Shown here piece after piece: positions 1 through 64,000 of a DNA stretch of 64,000 nucleotides. The position numbers and the translations under genes were made by a program. The stretch is from contig OZ024742.1 of the NCBI GenBank assembly GCA_964016885.1, positions 349,804,001-349,868,000 on the forward strand, given 5' to 3'. The DNA is from Eledone cirrhosa (Eukaryota). A model generated the notes under the pieces. That model did not search any database, was not told the DNA's origin, and saw only the letters and a program-made list of their open reading frames with translations. Numbering within the stretch: the stretch's first letter is position 1; the number at the start of each line of letters is the position of its first letter.

Positions 1-3000
1 ACAGAGAGACATTAAAGAGAGAGACATTGAACAGAGAGACACTGAACAGAGAGACAGTGAACAGAGAGACATTGAACAGAGAGACACTGAACAGAGAGAC
101 ACTGAACAGGGAGACACTGTACAGAGAAACATTGAACAGAGAGACATTGAACAGAGAGACACTGAACAGAGACACACTGACCAGAGAGACATTGCAAGGA
201 GAGACATTGAACAGAGAGACATTGAAAAGAGAGACATTGAACAGAGAGACACTGAACAGAGAGACATTGAACAGGGAGACACTGTACTGAGAGACACTGA
301 ACAGACAGACACTGAACAGAGAGAGATTGAACAGAGAGACACTGAACAGAGAGACATTGAACAGAGAGACAATGAACAGACAGACATTGAACAGAGAGAC
401 ATTGAACAGAGAGACATTGAACAGAGAGACACTGTACAGAGAGACATTGAACAGAGAGACATTGAACAGAGAGACATTGAACAGAGTGACATTAAACAGA
501 GAGACATTGATCAGAGAGACAATGAACAGACAGACATTGAACAGAGAGACACTGAACAGAGAGACATTGAACAGAGAGACATTGAACAGAGAGACATTGA
601 ACAGAGAGACATTAAACAGAGAATCACTGAACAGAGAGACATTGAACAGAGAGACATTGAACAGAGAGACATTGAACAGAGAGACACTGAACAGAGAGAC
701 ATTGAACAGAGAGACATTGAACAGAGAGACATTGAACAGAGAGACACTGAACAGAGAGACATTGAACAGAGAGACACTGAACAGAGAGACATTGAACAGA
801 GAGACACTGAACAGAGAGACATTGAACAAAGAGACACTGAACAGAGAGACACTGAACAGAGAGACATTGAACAGTGAGACATTGAACAGAGAGACATTGA
901 ACAGAGAGACACTGAATTGAGAGACATTGAACAGAGAGACATTGAACAGAGAGACACTGAACAGAGAGACACTGAACAGAGAGACACTGAACAGAGAGAC
1001 ATTGAACAGAGAGACATTGAACAGAGAGACATTGAACAGAGAGACACTGAACAGAGAGACATTGAACAGAGAGACATTGCACAGAGAGCCATTGAACAGA
1101 GAGACATTGAACAGAGAGACACTGAACAGAGAGACATTGAACAGAGAGACATTGAACAGAGAGACACTGAACAGAGATACATTGAACAGTGAGACACTGT
1201 ACAGAGAGACATTGAACAGAGAGACACTGAATAGAGAGACATGAACAGAGAGACATTGAACAGAGAGACACTGAACAGAGAGACACTGAACAGAGAGACA
1301 TTGAACAGAGAGACATTGGACAGAGAGACACTGAACAGAGAGACATTGAACAGAGAGACACTGAACAGAGAGACACTGAACAGAGAGACATTGAACAGAC
1401 AGACATTGAACAGAGAGACACTGAACAGAGAGACACTGAACAGAGAGACACTGAACAGAGGGACACTGAACAGAGAGACACTGAACAGAGAGACACTGAA
1501 CAGAGAGACACTGAACAGAGAGACATTGAACAGAAAGACACTGAACAGAGAGACATTGAACAGTGAGACACTGTACAGAGAGACATTGAACAGAGAGACA
1601 CTGAATTGAGAGACATTGATCAGAGAGACATTGAACAGAGAGACAGTGAACAGAGAGACAGTGAACAGAGAGACACTGAACAGAGAGACATTGAACAGAG
1701 AGACATTGAACAGAGAGACATTGAACAGAGAGACACTGAACAGAGAGACATTGAACAGAGAGACATTGCACAGAGAGACATTGAACAGAGAGACATTGAA
1801 CAGAGAGACACTGAACAGAGAGACATTGAACAGAGAGACATTGAAAAGAGAGACACTGAACAGAGATACATTGAACAGTGAGACACTGTACAGAGAGACA
1901 TTGAACAGAGAGACACTGAATAGAGAGACATGAACAGAGAGACATTGAACAGAGAGACACTGAACAGAGAGACACTGAACAGAGAGACATTGAACAGAGA
2001 GACATTGAACAGAGAGACACTGAACAGAGAGACATTGAACAGAGAGACACTGAACAGAGAGACACTGAACAGAGAGACACTGAACAGAGAGACAATGAAC
2101 AGACAGACATTGAACAGAGAGACACTGAACAGAGAGACACTGAACAGAGAGACACTGAACAGAGGGACAGTGAACAGAGAGACACTGAACAGAGAGACAC
2201 TGAACAGAGAGACACTGAACAGAGAGACATTGAACAGAGAGACACTGAACAGAGAGACACTGAACAGAGAGACACTGAACAGAGGGACACTGAACAGAGA
2301 GACATTGAACAGAGAGACACTGAACAGAGAGACATTGAACAGAGAGAAACTGAACAGAGAGACATTGAACAGAGAGACACTGAACAGAGAGACATTGAAC
2401 AGAGAGACACTGAACAGAGAGATACTGAACAGAGAGACATTGAACAGAGAGACACTGAACAGAGAGACATTGAACAGAGAGACACTGAACAGAGAGACAC
2501 TGAACAGAGAGACATTGAACAGAGAGACACTGAACAGAGAGACACTGAACAGAGAGACACTGAACAGAGAGACAATGAACAGACAGACATTGAACAGAGA
2601 GACGTTGAACAGAGAGACATTAAACAGAGAGACACTTTACAGAGAGACATTGAACAGAGAGACATTGAACAGAGAGACATTGAACAGAGTGACATTAAAC
2701 AGAGAGACATTGATCAGAGAGACAATGAACAGACAGACATTAAACAGAGAGACACTGAACAGAGAGACATTGAACAGAGAGACATTGAACAGAGAGACAT
2801 TGAACAGAGAGACATTAAACAGAGAATCACTGAACAGAGAGACATTGAACAGAGAGACATTGAACAGAGAGACATTGAACAGAGAGACATTGAACAGAGA
2901 GACACTGAACAGAGAGACATTGAACAGAGAGACATTGAACAGAGAGACATTGAACAGAGAGACACTGAACAGAGAGACATTGAACAGAGAGACACTGAAC

Positions 3001-6000
3001 AGAGAGACATTGAACAGAGAGACACTGAACAGAGAGACATTGAACAGAGAGACACTGAACAGAGAGACACTGAATAGAGAGACATTGAACAGTGAGACAT
3101 TGAACAGAGAGACATTGAACAGAGAGACACTGAATTGAGAGACATTGAACAGAGAGACACTGAACAGAGAGACACTGAACAGAGAGACATTGAACAGAGA
3201 GACATTGAACAGAGAGACATTGAACAGAGAGACACTGAACAGAGAGACATTGAACAGAGAGACATTGCACAGAGAGACATTGAACAGAGAGACATTGAAC
3301 AGAGAGACACTGAACAGAGAGACATTTAACAGAGAGACATTGAACAGAGAGACACTGAACAGAGATACATTGAACAGTGAGACACTGTACAGAGAGACAT
3401 TGAACAGAGAGACACTGAATAGTGAGACATGAACAGAGAGACATTGAACAGAGAGACACTGAACAGAGAGACACTGAACATAGAGACATTGAACAGAGAG
3501 ACATTGGACAGAGAGACACTGAACAGAGAGACATTGAACAGAGAGACACTGAACAGAGAGACATTGAACAGAGAGACATCGAACAGAGAGATACTGAACA
3601 GAGAGACATTGAACAGAGAGACACTGAACAGAGAGACATTGAACAGAGAGACATTGAACAGAGAGACATTGAACAGAGAGACACTGAACAGAGAGACATT
3701 GAACAGAGAGACACTGAACAGAGAGACACTGAACAGATAGACACTGAACAGAGAGACATTGAACAGAGAGACACTGAACATAGAGACATTGAACAGAGAG
3801 ACATTAAAAAGACAGACATTGAACAGAGAGACACTGAACAGAGAGACACTGAACAGAGAGACACTGTACAGAGAGACATTGAACAGAGAGACATTGAACA
3901 GAGAGACACTGAACAGAGACACACTGAACAGAGAGACATTGCAAGGAGAGACATTGAACAGAGAGACATTGAAAATAGAGACATTGAACAGAGAGACACT
4001 GAACAGAGAGACATTGAACAGGGAGACACTGTACTGAGAGACACTGAACAGACAGACACTGAACAGAGAGAGATTGAACAGAGAGACACTGAACAGAGAG
4101 ACATTGAACAGAGAGACAATGAACAGACAGACATTGAACAGAGAGACATTGAACAGAGAGACATTGAACAGAGAGACACTGTACAGAGAGACATTGAACA
4201 GAGAGACATTGAACAGAGAGACATTGAACAGAGAGACATTAAACAGAGAGACATTGATCAGAGAGACAATGAACAGACAGACATTGAACAGAGAGACATT
4301 GAACAGAGAGACACTGAACAGAGAGACATTGATCAGAGAGACATTGAACAGAGAGACGTTGAACAGAGAGACATTGAACAGAGAGACACTGAACGGAGAG
4401 ACATTGAACAGAGAGACATTGAACAGAGAGACATTGAACAGAGAGACACTGAACAGAGAGACATTGAACAGAGAGACATCGAACAGAGAGATACTGAACA
4501 GAGAGACATAGAACAGAGAGACACTGAACAGAGAGACGTTGAACAGAGAGATACTGAACAGAGAGACATTGAACAGAGAGACATTGAACAGAGAGACACT
4601 GAACAGAGAGACATTGAACAGAGAGACATTGAACAGAGAGACATTGAACAGAGAGACACTGAACAGAGAGACATTGAACAGAAAGACACTGAACAGAGAG
4701 ACATTGAACAGTGAGACACTGTACAGAGAGACATTGAACAGAGAGACACTGAATTGAGAGACATTGAACAGAGAGACAGTGAACAGAGAGACAGTGAACA
4801 GAGAGACACTGAACAGAGAGACATTGAACAGAGAGACATTGAACAGAGAGACATTGAACAGAGAGACACTGAACAGAGAGACATTGCACAGAGAGACATT
4901 GCACAGAGAGACATTGAACAGAGAGACATTGAACAGAGAGACACTGAACAGAGAGACATTGAACAGAGAGACATTGAAAAGAGAGACACTGAACAGAGAT
5001 ACATTGAACAGTGAGACACTGTACAGAGAGACATTAAACAGAGAGACACTGAATAGAGAGACATGAACAGAGAGACATTGAACAGAGAGACACTGAACAG
5101 AGAGACACTGAACAGAGAGACATTGAACAGAGAGACATTGAACAGAGAGACACTGAACAGAGAGACATTGAACAGAGAGACACTGAACAGAGAGACACTG
5201 AACAGAGAGACACTGAACAGAGAGACATTGAACAGACAGACATTGAACAGAGAGACACTGAACAGAGAGACACTGAACAGAGAGACACTGAACAGAGGGA
5301 CAGTGAACAGAGAGACACTGAACAGAGAGACACTGAACAGAGAGACACTGAACAGAGAGACATTGAACAGAGAGACACTGAACAGAGAGACACTGAACAG
5401 AGAGACACTGAACAGAGGGACACTGAACAGAGAGACATTGAACAGAGAGACACTGAACAGAGAGACATTGAACAGAGAGAAACTGAACAGAGAGACATTG
5501 AACAGAGAGACACTGAACAGAGAGACATTGAACAGAGAGACACTGAACAGAGAGACACTGAACAGAGAGACATTGAACAGAGAGACACTGAACAGAGAGA
5601 CATTGAACAGAGAGACACTGAACAGAGAGACACTGAACAGAGAGACATTGAACAGAGAGACACTGAACAGAGAGACACTGAACAGAGAGACACTGAACAG
5701 AGAGACAATGAACAGACAGACATTGAACAGAGAGACGTTGAACAGAGAGACATTGAACAGAGAGACACTTTACAGAGAGACATTGAACAGAGAGACATTG
5801 AACAGAGAGACATTGAACAGAGTGACATTAAACAGAGAGACATTGATCAGAGAGACAATGAACAGACAGACATTGAACAGAGAGACACTGAACAGAGAGA
5901 CATTGAACAGAGAGACATTGAACAGAGAGACATTGAACAGAGAGACATTAAACAGAGAATCACTGAACAGAGAGACATTGAACAGAGAGACATTGAACAG

Positions 6001-9000
6001 AGAGACATTGAACAGAGAGACATTGAACAGAGAGACACTGAACAGAGAGACATTGAACAGAGAGACATAGAACAGAGAGACATTGAACAGAGAGACACTG
6101 AACAGAGAGACATTGAACAGAGAGACACTGAACAGAGAGACATTGAACAGAGAGACACTGAACAGAGAGACATTGAACAGAGAGACACTGAACAGAGAGA
6201 CACTGAACAGAGAGACATTGAACAGTGAGACATTGAACAGAGAGACATTGAACAGAGAGACACTGAATTGAGAGACATTGAACAGAGAGACATTGAACAG
6301 AGAGACACTGAACAGAGAGACACTGAACAGAGAGACACTGAACAGAGAGACATTGAACAGAGAGACATTGAACAGAGAGACATTGAACAGAGAGACACTG
6401 AACAGAGAGACATTGAACAGAGAGACATTGCACAGAGAGACATTGAACAGAGAGACATTGAACAGAGAGACACTGAACAGAGAGACATTTAACAGAGAGA
6501 CATTGAACAGAGAGACACTGAACAGAGATACATTGAACAGTGAGACACTGTACAGAGAGACATTGAACAGAGAGACACTGAATAGTGAGACATGAACAGA
6601 GAGACATTGAACAGAGAGACACTGAACAGAGAGACACTGAACAGAGAGACATTGAACAGAGAGACATTGGACAGAGAGACACTGAACAGAGAGACATTGA
6701 ACAGAGAGACACTGAACAGAGAGACATTGAACAGAGAGACATCGAACAGAGAGATACTGAACAGAGAGACATTGAACGGAGAGACACTGAACAGAGAGAC
6801 ATTGAACAGAGAGACATTGAACAGAGAGTCATTGAACAGAGAGACACTGAACAGAGAGACATTGAACAGAGAGACACTGAACAGAGAGACACTGAACAGA
6901 TAGACACTGAACAGAGAGACATTGAACAGAGAGACACTGAACATAGAGACATTGAACAGAGAGACATTAAAAAGAGAGACATTGAACAGAGAGACACTGA
7001 ACAGAGAGACACTGTACAGAGAGACATTGAACAGAGAGACATTGAACAGAGAGACACTGAACAGAGACACACTGAACAGAGAGACATTGCAAGGAGAGAC
7101 ATTGAACAGAGAGACATTGAAAATAGAGACATTGAACAGAGGGACACTGAATAGAGAGACATTGAACAGGGAGGCACTGTACTGAGAGACACTGAACAGA
7201 CAGACACTGAACAGAGAGAGATTGAACAGAGAGACACTGAACAGAGAGACATTGAACAGAGAGACAATGAACAGGCAGACATTGAACAGAGAGACATTGA
7301 ACAGAGAGACATTGAACAGAGAGACACTGTACAGAGAGACATTGAACAGAGAGACATTGAACAGAGAGACATTGAACAGAGAGACATTAAACAGAGAGAC
7401 ATTGATCAGAGAGACAATGAACAGACAGACATTGAACAGAGAGACATTGAACAGAGAGACACTGAACAGAGAGACATTGATCAGAGAGACATTGAACAGA
7501 GAGACGTTGAACAGAGAGACATTGAACAGAGAGACACTGAACAGAGAGACATTGAACAGAGAGACATTGAACAGAGAGACATTGAACAGAGAGACACTGA
7601 ACAGAGAGACATTGAACAGAGAGACATCGAACAGAGAGATACTGAACTGAGAGACATTGAACAGAGAGACATTGAACAGAGAGACATTGAACAGAGAGAC
7701 ACTGAACAGAGAGACACTGTACAGATAGACATTGAACAGAGAGACATTGAACAGAGAGACACTGTACAGAGAGACATTGAACAGAGAGACATTGAACAGA
7801 GAGACACTGAACAGAGAGACATTGAACAGAGAGACACTGAACAGAGAGACACTGAACAGAGAGACACTGTACAGAGAGACATTGAACAGAGAGACATTGA
7901 ACAGAGAGACACTGAACAGAGAGACATTGAACAGAGAGACATTGAACAGAGAGACATTGAACAGAGAGACATTGAACAGAGAGACACTGAACAGAGAAAC
8001 ACTGCACGGAGAGACATTGAACAGAGCGACATTGAACAGAGAGACACTGCACAGAGAGACATTGAACAGAGAGACACTGAACAGAGACACACTGAACAGC
8101 GAGACATTGAACAGAGAGACACTGAACAGAGAGGCATTGAACAGAGAGACATTGAACAGAGAGACACTGAACAGAGAGACATTGAACAGAGAGACACTGA
8201 ACAGAGAGACATTGAACAGAGAGACACTGAACAGAGTGACACTGAACAGAGAGACATTGAACAGAGAGACATTGAACAGAGAGACACTGAACAGAGAGAC
8301 ATTGAACAGAGAGACATTGAACAGAGAGACACTGAACAGAGAGTCATTGAACAGAGAGACACTGAACAGAGAGACATTGAACAGAGAGACATTGAACAGA
8401 GAGACATTGAACAGAAAGACATTGAACAGAGAGACATTTAACAGAGAGACATTGATCAGAGAGACACTGAACAGAGAGACACTGAACAGAGAGGCATTGA
8501 AAAGAGAGACACTGAACAGAGAGACACTGAACAGAGAGACACTGAACAGAGAGACATTGAACAGAGAGACACTGAACAGAGAGACATTGAACAGAGAGAC
8601 ATTAAAGAAAGAGACATTGAACAGAGAGACACTGAACAGAGAGACACTGAACAGAGAGACATTGAACAGAGAGACACTGAACAGAGAGACACTGAACAGG
8701 GAGACGCTGTACAGAGAAACATTGAACAGAGAGACATTGAACAGAGAGACACTGAACAGAGACACACTGAAATCAGAGACATTGCAAGGAGAGACATTGA
8801 ACAGAGAGTCATTGAAAAGAGAGACATTGAACAGAGAGACACTGAACAGAGAGACATTGAACAGGGAGACACTGCACTGAGAGACACTGAACAGACAGAC
8901 ACTGAACAGAGAGAGATTGAACAGAGAGACACTGAACAGAGAGACATTGAACAGAGAGATAATGAACAGACAGACATTGAACAGAGAGACATTGAACAGA

Positions 9001-12000
9001 GAGACATTGAACAGAGTGACATTAAACAGAGAGACACTGAACAGAGAGACATTGAACAGAGAGACATTGAACAGAGAGACATTGAACAGAGAGACACTGA
9101 ACAGAGAGACATTGAACAGAGAGACATTGAACAGAGAGACATTGAACAGAGAGACACTGAACAGAGAGACATTGAACAGAGAGACACTGAACAGAGAGAC
9201 ATTGAACAGAGAGACACTGAACAGAGAGACATTGAACAGAGAGACACTGAACAGAGAGACACTGAACAGAGAGACATTGAACAGTGAGACACTGTACAGA
9301 GAGACATTGAACAGAGAGACACTGAATTGAGAGACATTGAACAGAGAGTCATTGAACAGAGAGACACTGAACAGAGAGACACTGTACAGAGAGACACTGA
9401 ACAGAGAGACATTGAACAGAGAGACACTGAACAGAGATACATTGAACAGTGAGACACTGTACAGAGAGACATTGAACAGAGAGACACTGAATAGTGAGAC
9501 ATGAACAGAGAGACATTGAACAGAGAGACACTGAACAGAGAGACACTGAACAGAGAGACATTGAACAGAGAGACATTGGACAGAGAGACACTGAACAGAG
9601 AGACATTGAACAGAGAGACACTGAACAGAGAGACATTGAACAGAGAGACATCGAACAGAGAGATACTGAACAGAGAGACATTGAACGGAGAGACACTGAA
9701 CAGAGAGACATTGAACAGAGAGACATTGAACAGAGAGTCATTGAACAGAGAGACACTGAACAGAGAGACATTGAACAGAGAGACACTGAACAGAGAGACA
9801 CTGAACAGATAGACACTGAACAGAGAGACATTGAACAGAGAGACACTGAACATAGAGACATTGAACAGAGAGACATTAAAAAGAGAGACATTGAACAGAG
9901 AGACACTGAACAGAGAGACACTGTACAGAGAGACATTGAACAGAGAGACATTGAACAGAGAGACACTGAACAGAGACACACTGAACAGAGAGACATTGCA
10001 AGGAGAGACATTGAACAGAGAGACATTGAAAATAGAGACATTGAACAGAGGGACACTGAATAGAGAGACATTGAACAGGGAGGCACTGTACTGAGAGACA
10101 CTGAACAGACAGACACTGAACAGAGAGAGATTGAACAGAGAGACACTGAACAGAGAGACATTGAACAGAGAGACAATGAACAGGCAGACATTGAACAGAG
10201 AGACATTGAACAGAGAGACATTGAACAGAGAGACACTGTACAGAGAGACATTGAACAGAGAGACATTGAACAGAGAGACATTGAACAGAGAGACATTAAA
10301 CAGAGAGACATTGATCAGAGAGACAATGAACAGACAGACATTGAACAGAGAGACATTGAACAGAGAGACACTGAACAGAGAGACATTGATCAGAGAGACA
10401 TTGAACAGAGAGACGTTGAACAGAGAGACATTGAACAGAGAGACACTGAACAGAGAGACATTGAACAGAGAGACATTGAACAGAGAGACATTGAACAGAG
10501 AGACACTGAACAGAGAGACATTGAACAGAGAGACATCGAACAGAGAGATACTGAACAGAGAGACATTGAACAGAGAGACATTGAACAGAGAGACATTGAA
10601 CAGAGAGACACTGAACAGAGAGACACTGTACAGATAGACATTGAACAGAGAGACATTGAACAGAGAGACACTGTACAGAGAGACATTGAACAGAGAGACA
10701 TTGAACAGAGAGACACTGAACAGAGAGACATTGAACAGAGAGACACTGAACAGAGAGACACTGAACAGAGAGACACTGTACAGAGAGACATTGAACAGAG
10801 AGACATTGAACAGAGAGACACTGAACAGAGAGACATTGAACAGAGAGACATTGAACAGAGAGACATTGAACAGAGAGACATTGAACAGAGAGACACTGAA
10901 CAGAGAAACACTGCACGGAGAGACATTGAACAGAGCGACATTGAACAGAGAGACACTGCACAGAGAGACATTGAACAGAGAGACACTGAACAGAGACACA
11001 CTGAACAGCGAGACATTGAACAGAGAGACACTGAACAGAGAGGCATTGAACAGAGAGACATTGAACAGAGAGACACTGAACAGAGAGACATTGAACAGAG
11101 AGACACTGAACAGAGAGACATTGAACAGAGAGACACTGAACAGAGTGACACTGAACAGAGAGACATTGAACAGAGAGACATTGAACAGAGAGACACTGAA
11201 CAGAGAGACATTGAACAGAGAGACATTGAACAGAGAGACACTGAACAGAGAGTCATTGAACAGAGAGACACTGAACAGAGAGACATTGAACAGAGAGACA
11301 TTGAACAGAGAGACATTGAACAGAAAGACATTGAACAGAGAGACATTTAACAGAGAGACATTGATCAGAGAGACACTGAACAGAGAGACACTGAACAGAG
11401 AGGCATTGAAAAGAGAGACACTGAACAGAGAGACACTGAACAGAGAGACACTGAACAGAGAGACATTGAACAGAGAGACACTGAACAGAGAGACATTGAA
11501 CAGAGAGACATTAAAGAAAGAGACATTGAACAGAGAGACACTGAACAGAGAGACACTGAACAGAGAGACATTGAACAGAGAGACACTGAACAGAGAGACA
11601 CTGAACAGGGAGACGCTGTACAGAGAAACATTGAACAGAGAGACATTGAACAGAGAGACACTGAACAGAGACACACTGAAATCAGAGACATTGCAAGGAG
11701 AGACATTGAACAGAGAGTCATTGAAAAGAGAGACATTGAACAGAGAGACACTGAACAGAGAGACATTGAACAGGGAGACACTGCACTGAGAGACACTGAA
11801 CAGACAGACACTGAACAGAGAGAGATTGAACAGAGAGACACTGAACAGAGAGACATTGAACAGAGAGATAATGAACAGACAGACATTGAACAGAGAGACA
11901 TTGAACAGAGAGACATTGAACAGAGTGACATTAAACAGAGAGACACTGAACAGAGAGACATTGAACAGAGAGACATTGAACAGAGAGACATTGAACAGAG

Positions 12001-14773
12001 AGACACTGAACAGAGAGACATTGAACAGAGAGACATTGAACAGAGAGACATTGAACAGAGAGACACTGAACAGAGAGACATTGAACAGAGAGACACTGAA
12101 CAGAGAGACATTGAACAGAGAGACACTGAACAGAGAGACATTGAACAGAGAGACACTGAACAGAGAGACACTGAACAGAGAGACATTGAACAGTGAGACA
12201 CTGTACAGAGAGACATTGAACAGAGAGACACTGAATTGAGAGACATTGAACAGAGAGTCATTGAACAGAGAGACACTGAACAGAGAGACACTGTACAGAG
12301 AGACACTGAACAGAGAGACATTGAACAGAGAGACATTGAACAGAGAGACATTGAACAGAGAGACACTGAACAGAGAGACATTGAACAGAGAGATATTGAA
12401 CAGAGAGACATTGAACAGAGAGACATTGAACAGAGAGACACTGAACAGAGATACATTGAACAGTGAGACACTGTACAGAGAGACATTGAACAGAGAGACA
12501 CTGAATAGAGAGACATGAACAGAGAGACATTAAAGAGAGAGACATTGAACAGAGAGACACTGAACAGAGAGACACTGAACAGAGAGACATTGAACAGAGA
12601 GACACTGAACAGAGAGACACTGAACAGGGAGACACTGTACAGAGAAACATTGAACAGAGAGACATTGAACAGAGAGACACTGAACAGAGACACACCGAAC
12701 AGAGAGACATTGCAAGGAGAGACATTGAACAGAGAGACATTGAAAAGAGAGACATTGAACAGAGAGACACTGAAAAGAGAGACATTGAACAGGGAGACAC
12801 TGTACTGAGAGACACTGAACAGACAGACACTGAACAGAGAGAGATTGAACAGAGAGACACTGAACAGAGAGACATTGAACAGAGAGACAATGAACAGACA
12901 GACATTGAACAGAGAGACATTGAACAGAGAGACATTGAACAGAGAGACACTGTACAGAGAGACATTGAACAGAGAGACATTGAACAGAGAGACATCGAAC
13001 AGAGAGACATTAAACAGAGAGACATTGATCAGAGAGACAATGAACAGACAGACATTGAACAGAGAGACACTGAACAGAGAGACATTGAACAGAGAGACAT
13101 TGAACAGAGAGACATTGAACAGAGAGACATTAAACAGAGAGACACTGAACAGAGAGACATTGAACAGAGAGACATTGAACAGAGAGACATTGAACAGAGA
13201 GACATTGAACAGAGAGACACTGAACAGAGAGACATTGAACAGAGAGACACTGAACAGAGAGACATTGAACAGAGAGACACTGAACAGAGAGACATTGAAC
13301 AGAGAGACACTGAACAGAGAGACACTGAACAGAGAGACATTGAACAGTGAGACACTGTACAGAGAGACATTGAACAGAGAGACACTGAATTGAGAGACAT
13401 TGAACAGAGAGACATTGAACAGAGAGACACTGAACAGAGAGACACTGTACAGAGAGACACTGAACAGAGAGACATTGAACTGAGAGACATTGAACAGAGA
13501 GACATTGAACAGAGAGACACTGAACAGAGAGACATTGAACAGAGAGATATTGAACAGAGAGACATTGAACAGAGAGACATTGAACAGAGAGACACTGAAC
13601 AGAGATACATTGAACAGTGAGACACTGTACAGAGAGACATTGAACAGAGAGACACTGAATAGAGAGACGTGAACAGAGAGACATTGAACAGAGAGACACT
13701 GAACAGAGAGACACTGAACAGAGAGACATTGAACAGAGAGACATTGAACAGAGAGACACTGAACAGAGAGACACTGAACAGAGAGACACTGAACAGACAG
13801 ACATTGAACAGAGAGACACTGAACAGAGAGACACTGAACAGAGAGACACTGAACAGAGGCACACTGAACAGAGAGACACTGAACAGAGAGACACTGAACA
13901 GAGAGACACTGAACAGAGAGACATTGAACAGAGAGACATCGAACAGAGAGATACTGAACAGAGAGACATTGAACAGAGAGACACTGAACAGAGAGACATT
14001 GAACAGAGAGACATTGAACAGAGAGACATTGAACAGAGAGACACTGAACAGAGAGACATTGAACAGAGAGACACTGAACAGAGAGACACTGAACAGATAG
14101 ACACTGAACAGAGAGACATTGAACAGAGAGACACTGAACATAGAGACATTGAACAGAGAGACATTGAACAGAGAGACACTGAACAGAGAGACACTGAACA
14201 GAGAGACATTGAACAGAGAGACATTGAACAGGGAGACATTGAACAGAGAGACATTGAACAGAGAGACACTGAACAGAGAGACATTGAACAGAGAGACATT
14301 GAACAGAGAGACATTGAACAGAGAGACACTGAACAGAGAGACATTGAACAGAGAGACATTGAACAGAGAGACATTGAACAGAGAGACATTGATCAGAGAG
14401 ACACTGAACAGAGAGACACTGAACAGAGAGACATTGAACAGAGAGACATTGAACAAAGAGACACTGAACAGAGAGACACTGAACAGAGCGACATTGAACA
14501 GAGAGACATTGAACAGAGAGACACTGAACAGAGAGACATTGAACAGAGAGACATTTAACAGAGAGACATTGATCAGCGAGACACTGAACAGAGAGACACT
14601 GAACAGAGAGGCATTGAAAAGAGAGACATTGAACAGAGAGACATTGAACAGAGAGACACTGAACAGAGAGACACTGAACAGAGAGACATTGAACAAAGAG
14701 ACACTGAACAGAGAGACATTGAACAGAGAGACACTGAACAGAGAGACATTGAACAGAGAGACACTGAACAGAG
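1..14773. repeat. 15-bp tandem satellite, consensus ACAGAGAGACA(C/T)TGA, open at the window start
   Basis: Directly visible 15-bp period, ending at ...acactgaacagag|tagcttc (~14773). Roughly 980 units by length/15, with occasional 14-bp units. Confidence 0.98.
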
Positions 14774-36905: not shown

Positions 36906-37526
36906 GAAAATATCAGTCCAGTTCTAAGGCCGATTCGTCTTCTATGTATCTTTCACATGCTCCTCTTCCCTGTCTTTTCCCTTCTCAGACAGGGCTGTGT
37001 TCAGACGGGTCCATACCTACAATATCAGAGAGTATAAACAGATTTTAAGAGGTCAAAAAATATTTAGGAATGGTGAAGCCAACTGAATAGAGAATAGCAG
37101 TTAGTTGGATATGAAACAAAATATATTCCTATAAAAGCAAGGAAGCAATAGATATAATCAATCGTATGCGATGGAAAATACAACAGCAGGAAAAAGAAAA
37201 GGACGACCACCGAAACTAGAAATGTTTGACTGTTGGTGGCACAATTGACCCTTATAACTTAAAGACAAAGAAAAATCAGACCTCGTGGATATGATAAAGA
37301 ATATATAATTAAAGATGTATAGAAAGGGCCTGTCAAACAGCATTGAGATATGAGATATGAGAAATGTAAAGAAGCAACCTTCATATGAGAAGACAACAAC
37401 AACAAAACTATGTGTACAAGAAACAAAGACCTCTTCCTGCAGAACATCATAATAAAACATTAAAAAAACATTAATATACACAACGTAATTAAGAGAGAAA
37501 CATTGGAATTAGCAATGGGTTTATAA

Positions 37527-37811
37527 ATAGAAGAGAGAATAGAGCGCCTACCAAGATAAAAGCCATACATCACACTGAAAGACGAAGAAACCAATCTCTT
37601 GACATACTCTAAATGCAGATTAATTAATCCAACGAAGAATGAAAAGGCGAAGTGAACAGAACTCCTCGAAGATATCAAATACAAAATTAGACAAGCAATA
37701 AGACCAATACAATGAAACAACTACACATCCATCATCGAATTCTTCAACAATATAAAGAATAAAATGTTTTTCATACAATTTGACGCTGGAAAATTTCACC
37801 TGTTGATTGGG
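37527..37811 (+). pseudogene. Decayed Penelope-like element reverse transcriptase fragment
   Basis: One frame with 3 stops: PYITLKDEETN..KCRLINPTKNE..IQ*NN..IIEFFNNIKNKMFFIQFDAGKFH, resembling the PLE RT pattern ITLKDHK..CRLINP..FIQFDI..FY (from memory). Confidence 0.68.
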
Positions 37812-38559
37812 AAAATACTTTATAATAAAAGCAGTGTATCTTTAAGACGATATGAGTGTGATTTGGCTGCTATTTCTGAATATTTCAGCGAACACATAGA
37901 AGCAGCACCTTGAAATGAAATACGAACGTGTTTAACCAAATGAGTTTCAAACTAAAAACAAGATGGTTGGATAACATCCGTGAACTTGGTTGGTTTCCAG
38001 CTGGATCAGTTGGAGACGGTTGCTTCTGTCAGGATCCGCTGGAAGGAGTGTTTGAGGACTCTGCCCCCACGATTCTAGGGAAATGGTGTATATGAGAGAT
38101 GGGGATAGCGGGAGAGACTGAGGCAGTGGCAGTGGGAGCTTAGTTCCATTGTGTTCGGACCTGGTATGTCTTGAAAATATCTAATAATTCTTAAAGTACT
38201 GTTACCTTAAACTACTGTTAACGATGGCAAATTTAGATGAAACATTAGGACTTATAACTCTTGATTTAGGTTCCAAGTGTTTAGATATAATGGACACTAA
38301 ATATATAAATCATAATCCACTAGGTGTGTAGACAAGTGTGTATACACTAGGTGTGTATACACATACAATAGATGGTGGTGCTCTTTCATTGATTACCCTC
38401 CCATTTAATTGTCTCTACAAACCAATAATCACGACCCACTGCGATTTCAATTGCTACTTCTGTCTACATATACGGGGATCATCAGAAAGGTTCATAGGCT
38501 GACTGTGATGGAGTGATGATAGAGCTATGAAATCTTACGGGTGTATGTGTGTATAAATA

Positions 38560-58349: not shown

Positions 58350-59490
58350 GAATGCCTTCAGGCGCCCACAGCCCTCTACCAAGCGGAAACGGCAATCAGC
58401 GGAGACTCCACCTCGATATTCTATAGGGGATTAGTGGAGGATAAGTGCAATGACGTTCTCGGGGAAACTCTAGGCATCGAGGAGGGCGAACTGACCAGTC
58501 TGTTCGGGAGGACTTTCCATCCAGGGCCTATGGATAACTTCCAAAGGTCTCTGGCCTGTCAGTGCTACCGAGGAGCTCTACCAGTTCCAGACAAAATCTA
58601 CAGGCACGGACGCCCTAGCATAGATTCTGCCAAAAGGACCTGTCCAAGATGCGAGCAGGACATCGAAACCGTTCTGCACGCAATTGTTCAATGCCCAGGG
58701 GTGACCGACCTGTGGGATTATGTCGAACAGCTACGGTCACGTGTGGGACGCATCCAGTTGTCAGCCGAGTCCATCGTGAGGATCACCCCACCACCTTCAT
58801 TTAAGAATGTAGGAGAGGCGGTTTTCCTCTGTCTGGTGGCTATGGCGAAAGAGGTAATATGGTGGACTAGGTTAAAAGGACTGAGGACAAGCACCTTTCT
58901 CACCGGACAACAACTTATCCCCGTCTTTAAGTACTACTTCAGAAGGAAGGTGAGAGTGGAGAGAGAGGTGCTACGCCCCAGTAAATTCGCTGAAAGGTGG
59001 GTGAATGTGGCAAAAATGGCCCGAGTGAATGGGCCTTCTCTGTATATAAACCTGTAGGTTGAGGAAGATAAACAGAGGGAACACGAGAATACCAACAAAA
59101 CGTGTTCCTGGTGTTGAGGGTTGTTCTATCCACGGGGTGTAAAACAACCCTGTAGTAACGTTCCCCACTATTGGGGATTTCAATTGTTATTTTATTATAT
59201 ATTGTTTATTGTTATTGTTTCTACTTTAGGCACAAGGCCAGCAATTACCCAGTGCATTACTGGTACTTTATTTTATCGACCCCGTAAGGATGAAAGGCAA
59301 AGTCAACCTCGGCGGGATTTGAACTCAGATCGTGAAGGGACGTAACTATGCTAGAAAGCATGGCGTCTGACTCTCTACCAATACTGCCAATCCACCGCAA
59401 TGTTAAAGTTATATGATTTTTATGTAAAACCCCCGCCGTCACGTCTTGTAATGTCCCTTTTTTGTACGCGCCTGTGGCATATAAAGAAAG
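58347..59490 (+). mobile_element. 5'-truncated Tx1-like copy F, tandem to E in the same (ATCT)n, with a SINE in its 3' UTR
   Basis: ORF 58434-59057 is an ORF2 C-terminus; ends tgtggcatataaagaaagatatctaactat. Confidence 0.9.
59215..59398 (-). mobile_element. SINE inserted in the 3' UTR of copy F
   Basis: Full SINE sequence; the homologous UTR of copy G (~40150-40175) lacks it. Confidence 0.88.
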
Positions 59491-59635
59491 ATATCTAACT
59501 ATTTATTACTCTCTTTATATCTCTCTATATCTATATAAATCTATACACCACACACACACACACACATATATATATATAGAAATAGCCGTCGAAACGGCTT
59601 GAGCTCTGCCGTCGGGATCTTGAATATTTTCTTAT

Positions 59636-60233
<598 letters not shown>

Positions 60234-60235
<2 letters not shown>

Positions 60236-63200
60236 AAAGTTATATTTAAAATTGTTGGGTTACAACTAGTAAATATTTATAACTGATATAAAAGCACTCG
60301 ACAAATATTTGGAGTATATTTACAATATTAAATAAATGGAAACTATATTTATAAAACCATATTTATTTCATTATATATATTTCGGGGATATCATATTAAC
60401 AATATGCTATGCCTTCCTCAGACAAAATACAATATAAACAGTTTTATAGATAAATAGATTCGACATACCGTAACAACACCGACTTGCATTTGAAGAGGTT
60501 GGATTGGCAGTGAAAAAATTTTACACAGAGAGAAAGAAAGAGAGAAAAAAAAGAAAGAAAGACAGAAAACGAAGAAAAGGAAGAAAAAGAAGAAAAAGAA
60601 GAAATGCATGGAACAAAATAGAGAGATGGAAAGATAGATAAAGAGAAGAACTTCATGTAAAGAAAGATATATATATATATATATAGGGAGAGGAAATAGA
60701 GATAGATACATATATATATAGAAAATTAGGTAGTGGGAGATCAGTTGGGTAAATGTATCAATGATACATTTATTTATTTATTTATTTATTTAGCTCTAGT
60801 ATTAATGTAAGGGAGATATATAGAGAGATAAAAAATATAGAGAGAGAAAAAAATAGCGAGAGAAAAATTTTAAAAATAGCCAGATATATTCGAGGCGTAA
60901 AAACCCTATGTTTTAATGTATTAGTATTTATAAAACTTCCACTATATTGTAAATATCAGTATTCCTGAATGAGACAAGTATCCATAGTGTGTGAAAATTA
61001 ATTATCTTATGTTTAGTTTTTTAAAAAAATTCATATGTTTATGTGATAGCTACAAACATCCATGTGAATCCACCTGATCAACTCTGCAAACTCTAAGTTC
61101 ACGGAAAACATTCTCAATGTGGTATAAAAATTTGAGTATACATATATGTGTATTATTATTCCTGTCTTTACTCTACAAGATTATCTATCAAGCAGAAATA
61201 GAGAGCAGATTTCAATATACTAATAAAAATATATATCAGAAACAAAACTAAAAAAATAACAATAATAATAATAAGTAATAATAAAATAGAAAATAGAAAA
61301 CTAAAAAAAATATTACGAAAGAATATTACATATCAAAAATATTACATATTAAAAAATTTACATATTAAAGATATTAAAAATAAAAATAAAAATAAAAATA
61401 AAAAATATTAGAAAATACTACAATAATAAAAATAAAAATAAACCACAAAGATCAACCCTTCAAAATTAATTGACAATATATTGCCAAGTTCATTATAAGC
61501 ATCAGAGTCGAAAAACAGACAAAGCCAAAAATTATCTATCAAATCACATCAAGCAAAGATCATTTCAAAAAGTTTATGATGCTCAATTTGGTCTACATGT
61601 GTTCTTATATTTAATATAGAAGTTTATCTAGTGTAAGGTTTATTAAAAAATCTAGGTATCACTCAATTTTCAAAAATCTAGGTATCACTCAATTTTCAAT
61701 AGGCATACAATTAAATTAACCTACTCATCCACCAAAAATTTAGCACAAAATATTAATAGAATAAATAATAGGAACTTAAAACCTAGTGATAATAGCATAA
61801 ATAATATACAAGTTAACAAATGTAACTGTAGAGATAGATCTAAATGTCCGTTAAATAACAACTGCTTAGTTAAAAATATAGTATACAATTGTAATGTTAA
61901 TACTGACTCTAATTCTTTTAACTACGTCGGTTCCACATCGACGGAATTTAAACTTCGCTATAATAACCACAAGAATTCTTTCACAGATCCAAGCAAAAAA
62001 TCTTCAACGGCACTATCAGGCGTACTCTGGCAACTTAAGCTAGATAACGTTAGATATTCGACGGCTTGGAATATAGTCTCAAGAGGGATTCCTTTTAATT
62101 CATCCTCTGAGACATGTGACCTCTGCGCAGAGGAGATATTCTTTATACTAAAATCTAAAAATTCCCTTAATCTACGGACAAATTTATTCAGTTGTTGCAA
62201 ACATAGATTAAACTCAACGTTTAAATATAAATTTAAATTTAAAATGTAGTATATTTAGTTTGATTTATATTTATATGGGAAACTAGCCGATAAATCTTTG
62301 ATTCCTTCTTTTTATTCTTTTTATTTTTTATTTTTATTTTATTTTTATTTAAACATTCCTCATGAAAAATTAAGCTACCCTAAAAGCTGATGCTCCAAAT
62401 ATTTTGAATAAACCTTACACTAGATAAACTTCTATATTAAATATAAGAACACATGTAGACCAAATTGAGCATCATAAACTTTTTGAAATGATCTTTGCTT
62501 GATGTGATTTGATAGATAATTTTTGGCTTTGTCTGTTTTTCGACTCTGATACTTATAATGAACTTGGCAATATATTGTCAATTAATTTTGAAGGGTTGAT
62601 CTTTGTGGTTTATTTTTATTTTTATTATTGTAGTATTTTCTAATATTTTTTATTTTTATTTTTATTTTTAATATCTTTAATATGTAAATTTTTTAATATG
62701 TAATATTTTTAATATGTAATATTCTTTCGTAATATTTTTTTTATATTTTTTTTTAGTTTTCTATTTTCTATTTTATTATTACTTATTATTATTATTGTTA
62801 CTTTTTTAGTTTTGTTTCTGATATATATTTTTATTAGTATATTGAAATCTGCTCTCTATTTCTGCTTGATAGATAATCTTGTAGAGTAAAGACAGGAATA
62901 ATAATACACATATATGTATACTCAAATTGTTATACCACATTGAGAATGTTTTCCGTGAACTTAGAGTTTGCAGAGTTGATCAGGTGGATTCACATGGATG
63001 TTTGTAGCTATCACATAAACATATGAATTTTTTTAAAAAACTAAACATAAGATAATTAATTTTCACACACTATGGATACTTGTCTCATTCAGGAATACTG
63101 ATATTTACAATATAGTGGAAGTTTTATAAATACTAATACATTAAAACATAGGGTTTTTACGCCTCGAATATATCTGGCTATTTTTAAATTTTTTCTCTCG

Positions 63201-63736
63201 CTATTTTTTTCTCTCTCTATATTTTTTATCTCTCTATATATCTCCCTTACATTAATACTAGAGCTAAATAAATAAATAAATAAATAAATGTATCATTGAT
63301 ACATTTACCCAACTGATCTCCCACTACCTAATTTTCTATATATATATGTATCTATCTCTATTTCCTCTCCCTATATATATATATATATCTTTCTTTACAT
63401 GAAGTTCTTCTCTTTATCTATCTTTCCATCTCGCTATTTTGTTCCATGCATTTCTTCTTTTTCTTCTTTTTCTTCCTTTTCTTCGTTTTCTGTCTTTCTT
63501 TCTTTTTTTTTTTTTTCTCTCTCTTTCTTTCTCTCTGTGTAAAATTTTTTCACTGCCAATCCAACCTCTTCAAATGCAAGTCGGTGTTGTTACGGTATGT
63601 CGAATCTATTTATCTATAAAACTGTTTATATTGTATTTTGTCTGAGGAAGGCATAGCATATTGTTAATATGATATCCCCGAAATATATATAATGAAATAA
63701 ATATGGTTTTATAAAAATAGTTTCCATTTATTTAAT

Positions 63737-63742
<6 letters not shown>
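60234..63742. mobile_element. 3.5-kb long-inverted-repeat element: ~1.33-kb arms (60321-61650, 62401-63742), 750-bp spacer, left tail, (TA)n flanks
   Basis: Arms are near-identical reverse complements; mirrored ORFs 60418-60711(-) and 63439-63645(+) share SLCKIFSLPIQPLQMQVGVVTVCRIYLSIKLFILYFV. Confidence 0.9.
63634..63699 (+). ncRNA. Type-I hammerhead ribozyme fold (mirror copy 60364-60429, minus strand)
   Basis: tattttgt-CTGAGGA-aggcatagcatattgttaatatgatatcccc-GAAA-tatata-TA-atgaaata. Confidence 0.75.
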
Positions 63743-63798
<56 letters not shown>

Positions 63799-64000
63799 CA
63801 TATATATATAAACATATATATATATATATAATAAAGTATATATCCCTACACTCAAAAAGCGTCCAGAGACACATGTATTGTCCAACCATATGCCAATGTG
63901 GTTCAATGGCAGGTTAATAAATTAACGAGCCAGAACATATATAATCAAGGTTTAGCAAATAAGAAAAAGTTTCAAAATAAATTTAAAAAAATTCACTGTA

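Follow-up and report, generated by a model that had tools for sequence, protein, structure and literature searches.

The stretch analysed here (the window) comprises 64,000 nucleotides (nt) of the forward strand of Eledone cirrhosa (GenBank assembly GCA_964016885.1, contig OZ024742.1, positions 349,804,001 to 349,868,000). A 3.5-kb segment within it, positions 60234–63742, is very probably a single insertion of a Penelope-like element (PLE) of the Hydra clade into a (TA)n microsatellite, consisting of two 5′-truncated copies placed head to head. The right copy (61679–63742) retains about 190 C-terminal codons and a 1.5-kb 3′ untranslated region (3′UTR), and the left copy (60234–61649), which is inverted, retains 1.33 kb of the same 3′UTR together with an 87-nt tail. 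A preliminary description, made from the sequence alone, had noted no recognizable reverse transcriptase (RT) in the segment; it is not an unexplained RT-less element but a 5′-truncated insertion of an RT-encoding PLE with published hallmarks of that class (PMC8557442), and an ordinary structure from a new and abundant Hydra-clade family.

The two arms, 60315–61649 on the minus strand and 62402–63748 on the plus strand, are inverted relative to each other. A repeat search returned one segment in which they are 100% complementary (60669–61310 and 62747–63388, 642 nt) and further segments at 99% (61381–61649 and 62402–62670) and 98% (60315–60568 and 63495–63748). Global alignment of arm against arm covered 1327 aligned positions with nine substitutions (0.68%) and four indel events, all within low-complexity runs, which bears out both the near identity and the youth that the preliminary description had attributed to the structure. 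That description also placed a tail on the left side only, as is indeed the case: the left end runs on for 87 nt beyond the arm (60234–60320) before (TA)n is reached, the first six of these nucleotides (AATATA) merging indistinctly into the TA target, and the right end passes straight into (TA)n at 63742/63743. The junction between the copies reads without (TA)n or a TA-like spacer, and its 26-nt duplication repeats the first bases of the right copy in direct orientation.

The spacer contains a coding frame of 197 amino acids on the plus strand (61656–62249). A minus-strand open reading frame (ORF) to which attention had been drawn earlier (61958–62254) proved to be the antisense shadow of this frame and gave no significant family match. 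The window ORF reads CNCRDRSKC, then IVYNCNV...NYVGSTSTEFKLRYNNHK, then CDLCAEE and CKH, and carries the IVY...YVG...R...H...E...N pattern of GIY-YIG, which in relatives is continuous with the RT. It is 98.9% identical over 189 aligned residues to the endonuclease (EN) frame of a long copy of the family, L032. Five relatives among longer proteins (P0001–P0005, 387–705 amino acids) matched with E values of 1e-35 to 2e-26, about 39–44% identity and 87–93% query coverage, and in all of them the window segment is the C terminus. Upstream of it, four of the five carry FDIxxFYPSI and all five carry MGSxDGAE, YRDDG, FLDVT and SNHPPS.

We modelled the window ORF with AlphaFold from a six-row alignment. 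The model (mean predicted local distance difference test score (pLDDT) 54, core blocks 61–140 at 61–86) has a core of beta-beta-alpha-alpha-beta layout, and its top three fold matches among 48,161 representative chains were all GIY-YIG nucleases: T4 EndoII (Z 4.5, root-mean-square deviation 4.0, 92 aligned), I-TevI (Z 4.3, 3.7, 80 aligned) and the UvrC GIY-YIG domain (Z 3.3, 3.5, 72 aligned). Each Z score alone is weak, and it is the agreement of the three matches that carries the weight. A phmmer search against the PDB gave no match. In a protein atlas, the nearest clusters scored 0.96–0.97 and were mainly molluscan; one set (12 hits), scoring 0.96, is named GIY-YIG and has PF01541 on 23% of its members. 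The window ORF is the C-terminal GIY-YIG endonuclease end of an RT–EN protein, and thereby shows the RT-fused GIY-YIG EN expected of a PLE.

The arm is a high-copy repeat in its own 3.0-Gb genome, with 3938 first-look candidates; 40 were scored and all 40 matched, at 89–100% identity. Longer copies continue in frame upstream of 61679, and in independent contigs the family's upstream sequence appears there as loose ends, so that the right copy is 5′-truncated at this point. Two long copies, L031 and L032, align to the RT-bearing P0002 and P0005 across both RT and EN. In L032, a 514-amino-acid RT frame with FIQLDIANYYSSI, MGS, YRDD, FLDITL and SNHP is followed by a 222-amino-acid EN frame, the two being split by a frame shift in a poly-C run (L032:7059–7102; 7 to 17 C among the copies printed). 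A PLE-type RT is suggested by these family motifs and by the alignment to P0002 and P0005; searches of domain libraries gave no RT match and a PDB profile search gave one at E 0.76 only. The earlier statement that no RT is recognizable holds for the window copy; long copies of the family carry RT motifs.

The layout of the full unit was read from 12 loci found through the 5′ end of the ORF. In seven of them the arm end (...AATATTGTA), the 87-nt tail, a 49-nt leader and an ORF starting with ATG follow one another unbroken; in the other five, a 5′-truncated copy is preceded by an inverted fragment (four) or by (TA)n (one). From this contiguity it follows that the arm is the pseudo-long terminal repeat (pseudo-LTR) of a tandem unit, and that the tail is ordinary sequence between two alternative 3′ ends. 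The full unit measures about 3.85 kb (49-nt leader, ORF of about 2.2 kb, 1.49-kb 3′UTR and 87-nt tail), and its partial tandem arrangement in 7 of the 12 loci is the one by which PLEs form pseudo-LTRs.

Published accounts describe 5′ truncation, partial tandems forming pseudo-LTRs and hammerheads inside the pseudo-LTRs as general PLE traits, and an inverted 5′-truncated copy with a tail at one end as typical of them (PMC8557442). The head-to-head layout is therefore already known from this class, so that the element is not of a novel type. In the Hydra clade as defined there, the EN is C-terminal and lacks CCHH, the linker reads CxCX5C, CxxC and CxH flank the conserved E and N, DKT takes the place of DKG, RWK is present and the target is (TA)n (Craig, Yushenova, Rodriguez & Arkhipova 2021, PMC8557442). 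Read by eye against that description, the window ORF has CNCRDRSKC (CxCX5C), CDLC (CxxC) and CKH (CxH); it has one Cys between IVY and YVG, and P0001–P0005 have none. On the RT side, L032 reads SDKTNN and RRIRWRAF (RWR) and P0002 reads ADKTNN and RLRWKAY, so RWK occurs in relatives and is conservatively changed in the window's family. The target is also that of the clade, with (TA)n-type sequence at 46 of 46 insertion ends.

Beyond the C-terminal GIY-YIG EN, the linker, the CxxC/CxH motifs, DKT and the (TA)n targets, the family resembles the published Hydra-clade PLEs in its sense-strand hammerhead about 50–115 nt before the 3′ end, its pseudo-LTR tandems, its inverted partner and its one-sided tail (PMC8557442). 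It differs from them in size, with a unit of about 3.85 kb and a 1.49-kb 3′UTR against a published 'generally <3 kb', and in its tail of 87 nt against 30–40 nt. It differs also in its hammerhead, the helix II of which has 13 positions with a conserved C.C where the stems in File S2 of that study have 4–7 bp (PMC8557442), and which no Rfam model detects. A short element of less than 3 kb with a canonical hammerhead, a typical but not a defining Hydra trait, is thus not what we found; since the published size is given only as 'generally short', a 3.85-kb unit does not exclude membership (PMC8557442).

We next surveyed insertion ends in 44 sources (43 loci and the window), which yielded 54 distinct arm 3′ ends. 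A tail followed by a TA-rich microsatellite was present at 24 and a tail-less end followed by such a microsatellite at 22; seven ran through the tail into leader and ORF, and one had a partial tail. All 46 insertion ends therefore adjoin a TA-rich microsatellite. Outward-facing pairs with both ends readable numbered 14 (the window, L010, L011, L013, L014, L018, L020, L023, L025, L027, L028, L012/L015, L005/L043 and L007/L033), and exactly one end was tailed in each of the 14; L030, with two tail-less ends on the same strand, is not an outward-facing pair. With tails on 24 of 46 ends, this pattern would arise by chance with a probability of about 0.5^14 = 6e-5 if ends were independent. The inverted 5′-truncated neighbour with a one-sided tail that marks PLEs is accordingly seen in 14 of 14 pairs. 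Comparison of inversion points among other copies, proposed in the preliminary description, returned the same layout at other loci with different junctions: inner junctions differ between all inverted pairs whose inner ends could be placed, and each pair therefore arose separately. The inverted partner directly adjoins the 5′ end in most loci examined.

These counts bear on how the window's structure came about. PLE structures are known to trouble assemblies (PMC8557442) and no contig among the short contigs of four runs bridges 61649–61679, as might be expected if a chimeric fold-back read had made a false palindrome. Such a chimera would be symmetric, whereas the arms differ by nine substitutions and four indels and only one bears a tail; the same architecture, moreover, recurs at 13 other loci with different junctions, and we regard an assembly artefact as extremely improbable. 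Two independent insertions of the same family, in opposite orientation, into one TA microsatellite hot spot are very unlikely. (TA)n tracts do collect elements, such as the fold-back at 59769–60202 in the same tract, and L031 and L032 have unrelated elements side by side; independent insertions, however, would not be expected to lack (TA)n between the copies, to show the strict one-tail asymmetry (14 of 14) or to place the inverted partner directly against the 5′ end in most loci. Nor does anything set this pair apart from the other pairs in the genome, all with different junctions, as one would ask of a hairpin-RNA locus adopted by the host as a source of endogenous small interfering RNA or an ADAR substrate. 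Any read-through transcript would contain the 1.33-kb complementary arms, and we still consider adoption by the host highly improbable. Double-stranded RNA of more than 1 kb as an ADAR or small interfering RNA substrate, a self-cleaved RNA end and extrusion of a DNA stem-loop, all proposed in the preliminary description, are physically possible.

A single complementary DNA (cDNA) that folded back, or an RT that switched onto the nascent cDNA, could also have been copied in reverse into a hairpin-like inverted duplication. Copy-back of this kind would predict the near identity of the arms (nine substitutions in 1327), would accommodate slippage at the junction (the 26-nt duplication) and finds a parallel in fold-back units of 351 bp, described below, whose arms are perfectly complementary in 14 of 20 copies. 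It should, however, give the same terminus at both ends, and all 14 pairs have one tailed and one tail-less end; published in vitro data, in addition, show extension of both strands (PMC11167929). We judge this origin to be unlikely.

The reading that we prefer is a single insertion primed from both target strands. The GIY-YIG endonuclease would cleave the TA tract on each strand, and each 3′-OH would prime cDNA synthesis from an internal position of the element RNA, the first from the start site after ...UUGUA (no tail) and the second from the start site 87 nt further on (tail). The two cDNAs, extending in each other's direction and ending prematurely, would then be linked through a template switch at a microhomology, leaving the 26-nt duplication. 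The two alternative 3′ ends lie at AU-rich bases, ...UUGUA|AAUAUA without the tail and ...UUUCC|AUGUAU with it, and by our own reading of the sequence these could pair with a TA primer. In the 'twin priming' of L1 elements, primers from both target strands likewise give an inverted 5′ segment within a single insertion; L1 twin priming, however, inverts a different, upstream part of the template, and here both copies begin at the 3′ end of the element, the 3′ region being duplicated in inverted form.

Another parallel is PAc, a PLE of the Poseidon clade from the green anole, whose purified protein cuts and extends both target strands and initiates reverse transcription at either of two positions within the RNA, between which the tail lies (Frangieh et al. 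2024, PMC11167929). The tail between two alternative internal start sites and the AT-rich targets are shared with our family; cutting and extension of both strands by PAc would explain head-to-head copies, and the PAc hammerhead needs protein to cleave (PMC11167929). By analogy, it is likely that both cut target strands primed reverse transcription in the window insertion. The two systems belong to different clades and differ in detail: in PAc the ORF contains the start sites and the hammerhead extends over the start codon, whereas both start sites and the hammerhead lie 49–187 nt upstream of the ATG here, and the start sites here are AU-rich and able to pair with the TA target, whereas those of PAc are not homologous to the target (PMC11167929). 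The features of the insertion are collected in Table 1.

Table 1 Features of the PLE insertion in the window
Feature	Position	Strand	Basis or remark
(TA)n microsatellite, left flank (target sequence)	60203–60233		Sequence read; TA-rich at 46/46 family insertion ends
87-nt tail of the left, inverted copy	60234–60320	−	Same sequence between arm end and leader/ATG of the next ORF in 7/12 loci
Left copy, inverted; 5′-truncated, pseudo-LTR/3′UTR only	60321–61649	−	Inverted repeat with 62402–63748; homologous to the 3′UTR of full-length copies
Left hammerhead-shaped motif	60364–60429	−	Predicted cleavage between 60372 and 60371, minus strand
Head-to-head junction: A-run and 26-nt direct duplication (61650–61675/61676–61701)	61645–61701		Sequence; longer copies compared
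Right copy, coding remnant: last ~190 codons of the RT–EN ORF and stop codon	61679–62249	+	Without RT, without start codon
Right copy, 3′UTR/pseudo-LTR with tail-less end	62250–63742	+	Inverted-repeat part begins at 62402
Right hammerhead-shaped motif	63634–63699	+	Sequence and covariation among copies
(TA)n microsatellite, right flank	63743–63830		Sequence; family-wide end survey

Each arm carries a hammerhead-shaped motif; the two are identical in sequence and point outward, where the preliminary description had located them, and our own covariance model (R1) matches them at 63632–63700(+) and 60363–60431(−) with 89 bits. The right motif consists of helix I (63634–41/63692–99), CUGAGGA (63642–48), a long helix II (63649–79), GAAA (63680–83) and helix III (63683–90), with cleavage predicted between 63691 and 63692. 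It spans 51–115 nt before the tail-less 3′ end on the sense strand, the predicted cut lying 51 nt from that end. The type I core (C3-U4-G5-A6-N7-G8-A9, G12-A13-A14, A15.1-U16.1, H17) is present as CUGAGGA, GAAA and UA. The bare pattern CUGANGA-N(4–34)-GAAA is not rarer in the window than chance would have it (8 occurrences, 9.9 expected) and Rfam has no family at gathering score across the window, and support for the window hammerhead therefore comes only from comparison with other copies. Among young copies of the window's own subfamily the motif is nearly invariant, which is uninformative either way.

More distant copies provided the comparison. In 10 hand-picked variants, 91.5% of cells pair and five pairs change on both sides, against 32–53% and 0–2 pairs in controls with partners slid. 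A covariance model built from these 10 and run over 54 sources gave 114 matches at E ≤ 1e-4, in 96 distinct rows. In this alignment 89.7% of cells pair (38–53% when slid), and 16 of 25 pairs change on both sides, compared with 7–9 when slid and 8.9 ± 1.5 in shuffles, none of 500 of which reached 16; the covariation score is 0.222 (0.03–0.08 slid). By helix, the pairs changed on both sides are 12 of 14 in helix II, three of eight in helix I and one of three in helix III. N7 of CUGANGA varies between G, A and U, and the remaining core bases hold in nearly all of the 96 rows, with exceptions scattered over single copies; in two distant versions (L059 and L019), helix I or most of helix II is replaced compensatorily. 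Conservation in other copies, set beforehand as the test of the hammerhead, was therefore found. On this comparative evidence, the window motif is the pseudo-LTR hammerhead of the family, conserved among related copies and predicted to cut itself.

A C.C opposition in helix II (63652 and 63676 in the window, columns 25/80 of alignment A4) is unpaired in 95 of the 96 rows. The mismatch is kept even where neighbouring pairs have been replaced, and in all subfamilies.

The hammerhead is predicted to cut 187 nt upstream of the ATG in transcripts that start in the pseudo-LTR or come from a tandem, and would probably need a protein or a second copy to do so. In the dead, RT-less window insertion it is a passenger. 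To ask whether RNA cleaved by the hammerhead had served as template, we also searched the genome for breaks of the native sequence directly after the helix III loop. There were 39 matches, and the 30 distinct sites examined comprise nine native sites with a point change, three judged by eye to be native sequence from other subfamilies, one break into (TA)n and 17 true junctions; a control position inside helix II gave 10 matches with eight junctions, the patterns covering different numbers of subfamilies and the TA loop inviting joins by microhomology. An inverted terminal fragment at L032:5497–5557 (same place as L035), of 51 nt (plus TATATATA), has its inner end at the predicted cleavage site.

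Hammerheads of Hydra-clade PLEs in the published File S2 are sense-strand motifs some 100 nt from the 3′ end, with a short stem III and a loop of 1–2 nt; two Hydra families there have U.U at 10.1–11.1 (PMC8557442). The window's motif is laid out in the same way. In minimal PLE hammerheads, helix II is enlarged, stem II has an unpaired base at its 5′ end, helix III is palindromic and activity is low, and 'dual min-HHRs ~100–700 bp apart' on opposite strands were already noted in 2014 (Cervera & de la Pena, PMC4209133). Ours resembles these in being of type I, in its enlarged helix II, in an extra unpaired base and in a short palindromic helix III that suggests action as a dimer; it differs in helix II (13 positions against 7–8 bp) and in helix I (8 bp against 4–5 bp) (PMC4209133).

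Several observations weigh against this account. Contigs from four runs at the locus measure 60–591 nt (60–240 nt at the junction), and none bridges 61649–61679. The arms differ at nine positions and were therefore not necessarily identical at birth. Two-strand priming was shown in vitro for a Poseidon-clade lizard element and not for the window's family (PMC11167929), and the placement in the Hydra clade, which motifs suggest, comes from reading them by eye rather than from a tree. For the protein, Pfam finds neither RT nor GIY-YIG (PF01541) in the window ORF, P0001–P0005 or L032, PHROGs and NCBIfam give nothing meaningful, the profile search against the PDB yields only a sub-threshold alignment to a bacterial RT palm (E 0.76), and the GIY-YIG fold matches are weak (Z 3.3–4.5) on a model of mean pLDDT 54. 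Shuffled sequences fold as well as the hammerhead motif does (z +0.72 and +0.89), and the hammerhead fold of the window variant, at −1.7 against −8.5 kcal/mol, is not its minimum-energy fold; in four of six other variants, the minimum-energy fold already shows the junction of helices I and II. The covariation alignment was fitted to the model that we had built ourselves, and decayed copies from a few subfamilies make up most of it.

Rfam's five hammerhead models (clan CL00010) also gave no match at E ≤ 10 in 59400–64000. They found no hammerhead at gathering score in L059, L067 or L019 either, and none at E ≤ 10 on the motif of L059, a relative with a canonical G10.1–C11.1 pair. As Rfam is blind to this canonical-pair relative as well, its silence on the window carries little weight; its models appear blind to the class of hammerheads with a long helix II.

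Directly beside the PLE insertion, in the same (TA)n tract, lies a 351-bp palindrome (59769–60119, arms of 174 nt) with outward hammerhead-like motifs (R1, 39.8 and 32.2 bits). The unit is dispersed, with at least 1034 first-look candidates, and all 40 loci scored match over the full length at 97–99%. An 83-nt extension (60120–60202 in the window) stands at one end and a TA-rich microsatellite at the other in 18 of 19 target copies; only the tailed end was detected in L123, and a second copy inside L112 is without the extension at both ends. The arms have no mismatch in 168–169 positions in 14 of 20 copies and one or two in the other six, and the centre of the palindrome occurs in six versions among the 20. 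Nine variants occur among the 20 copies, one symmetric and eight asymmetric, numbers too small to tell copying of whole units from fresh formation at each insertion.

A second, older fold-back family (L067:780–1160, loci L078–L106) has a palindromic unit of 381 bp that bears two outward hammerheads (variant E), and at least 2708 first-look candidates; of 40 places scored, most match over most of the length at 83–91%. For another subfamily, a terminal string of 25 nt was found 2570 times across the genome, and an opposite-strand partner lay within 450 nt in 13 of 30 loci fetched (L157–L186), which suggests many more short fold-back units. The 351-bp and 381-bp units resemble fold-back derivatives of PLE termini, non-autonomous and spreading as whole units. 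Tentatively, and with rather more doubt than confidence, head-to-head PLE insertions may be the birth stage of undescribed non-autonomous fold-backs of 350–430 bp, strand-symmetric, copied whole and present in thousands of copies. Each such fold-back would combine two PLE 3′ termini in inverted order, with hammerheads that face outward and a tail on one side only.

Other elements were met along the way. A different element of about 860 bp (L031:4650–5510 and L032:4150–4680) is likewise inverted and outward-facing, and occupies (TA)n tracts that also contain family copies. It has a clean minimal hammerhead (CUGAUGAG...CGAAAC, CUAG loop) and gave the only Rfam hammerhead matches (HH9, 38.6 and 33.1 bits, below the gathering score of 52). 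Elsewhere in the window, 37473–37868(+) is a fragment of another Hydra-like PLE RT (36% identity to residues 149–267 of P0002, E 1.7e-11), and positions 1–14773 form a tandem array of a 15-nt unit (ACAGAGAGACATTGA) with about 985 copies, 90% matches and a strong purine skew, which runs off the left end of the window. In runs X5, X6 and X7 (coded organisms B, C and D), 0.34–0.37 of the sampled words of 61300–62450 are present and X5 contigs match at 95% or more; the PLE family therefore has close relatives in material labelled as other organisms.

For annotation, the 3.5-kb 'element' is a dead, 5′-truncated PLE insertion and not a new RT-less element or gene. It adds modestly to what is known, through the clear one-tail counts, the fold-back derivatives and a hammerhead variant that Rfam does not see. 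As Rfam misses covarying hammerheads with a long helix II and a C.C mismatch, hammerhead counts in PLE-rich genomes are probably too low. For the biology of PLEs, the family is large, young and TA-targeting, and it allows a tally of hallmarks that have been published but not yet explained: all 14 pairs have a single tail, and all 46 ends adjoin (TA)n. Counts of this kind are the genomic footprint needed to test a model of two strands and two start sites that comes from a single in vitro system. If head-to-head insertions are indeed the birth stage of the fold-backs, the one-tail rule would report an obligately asymmetric, two-strand integration of PLEs.

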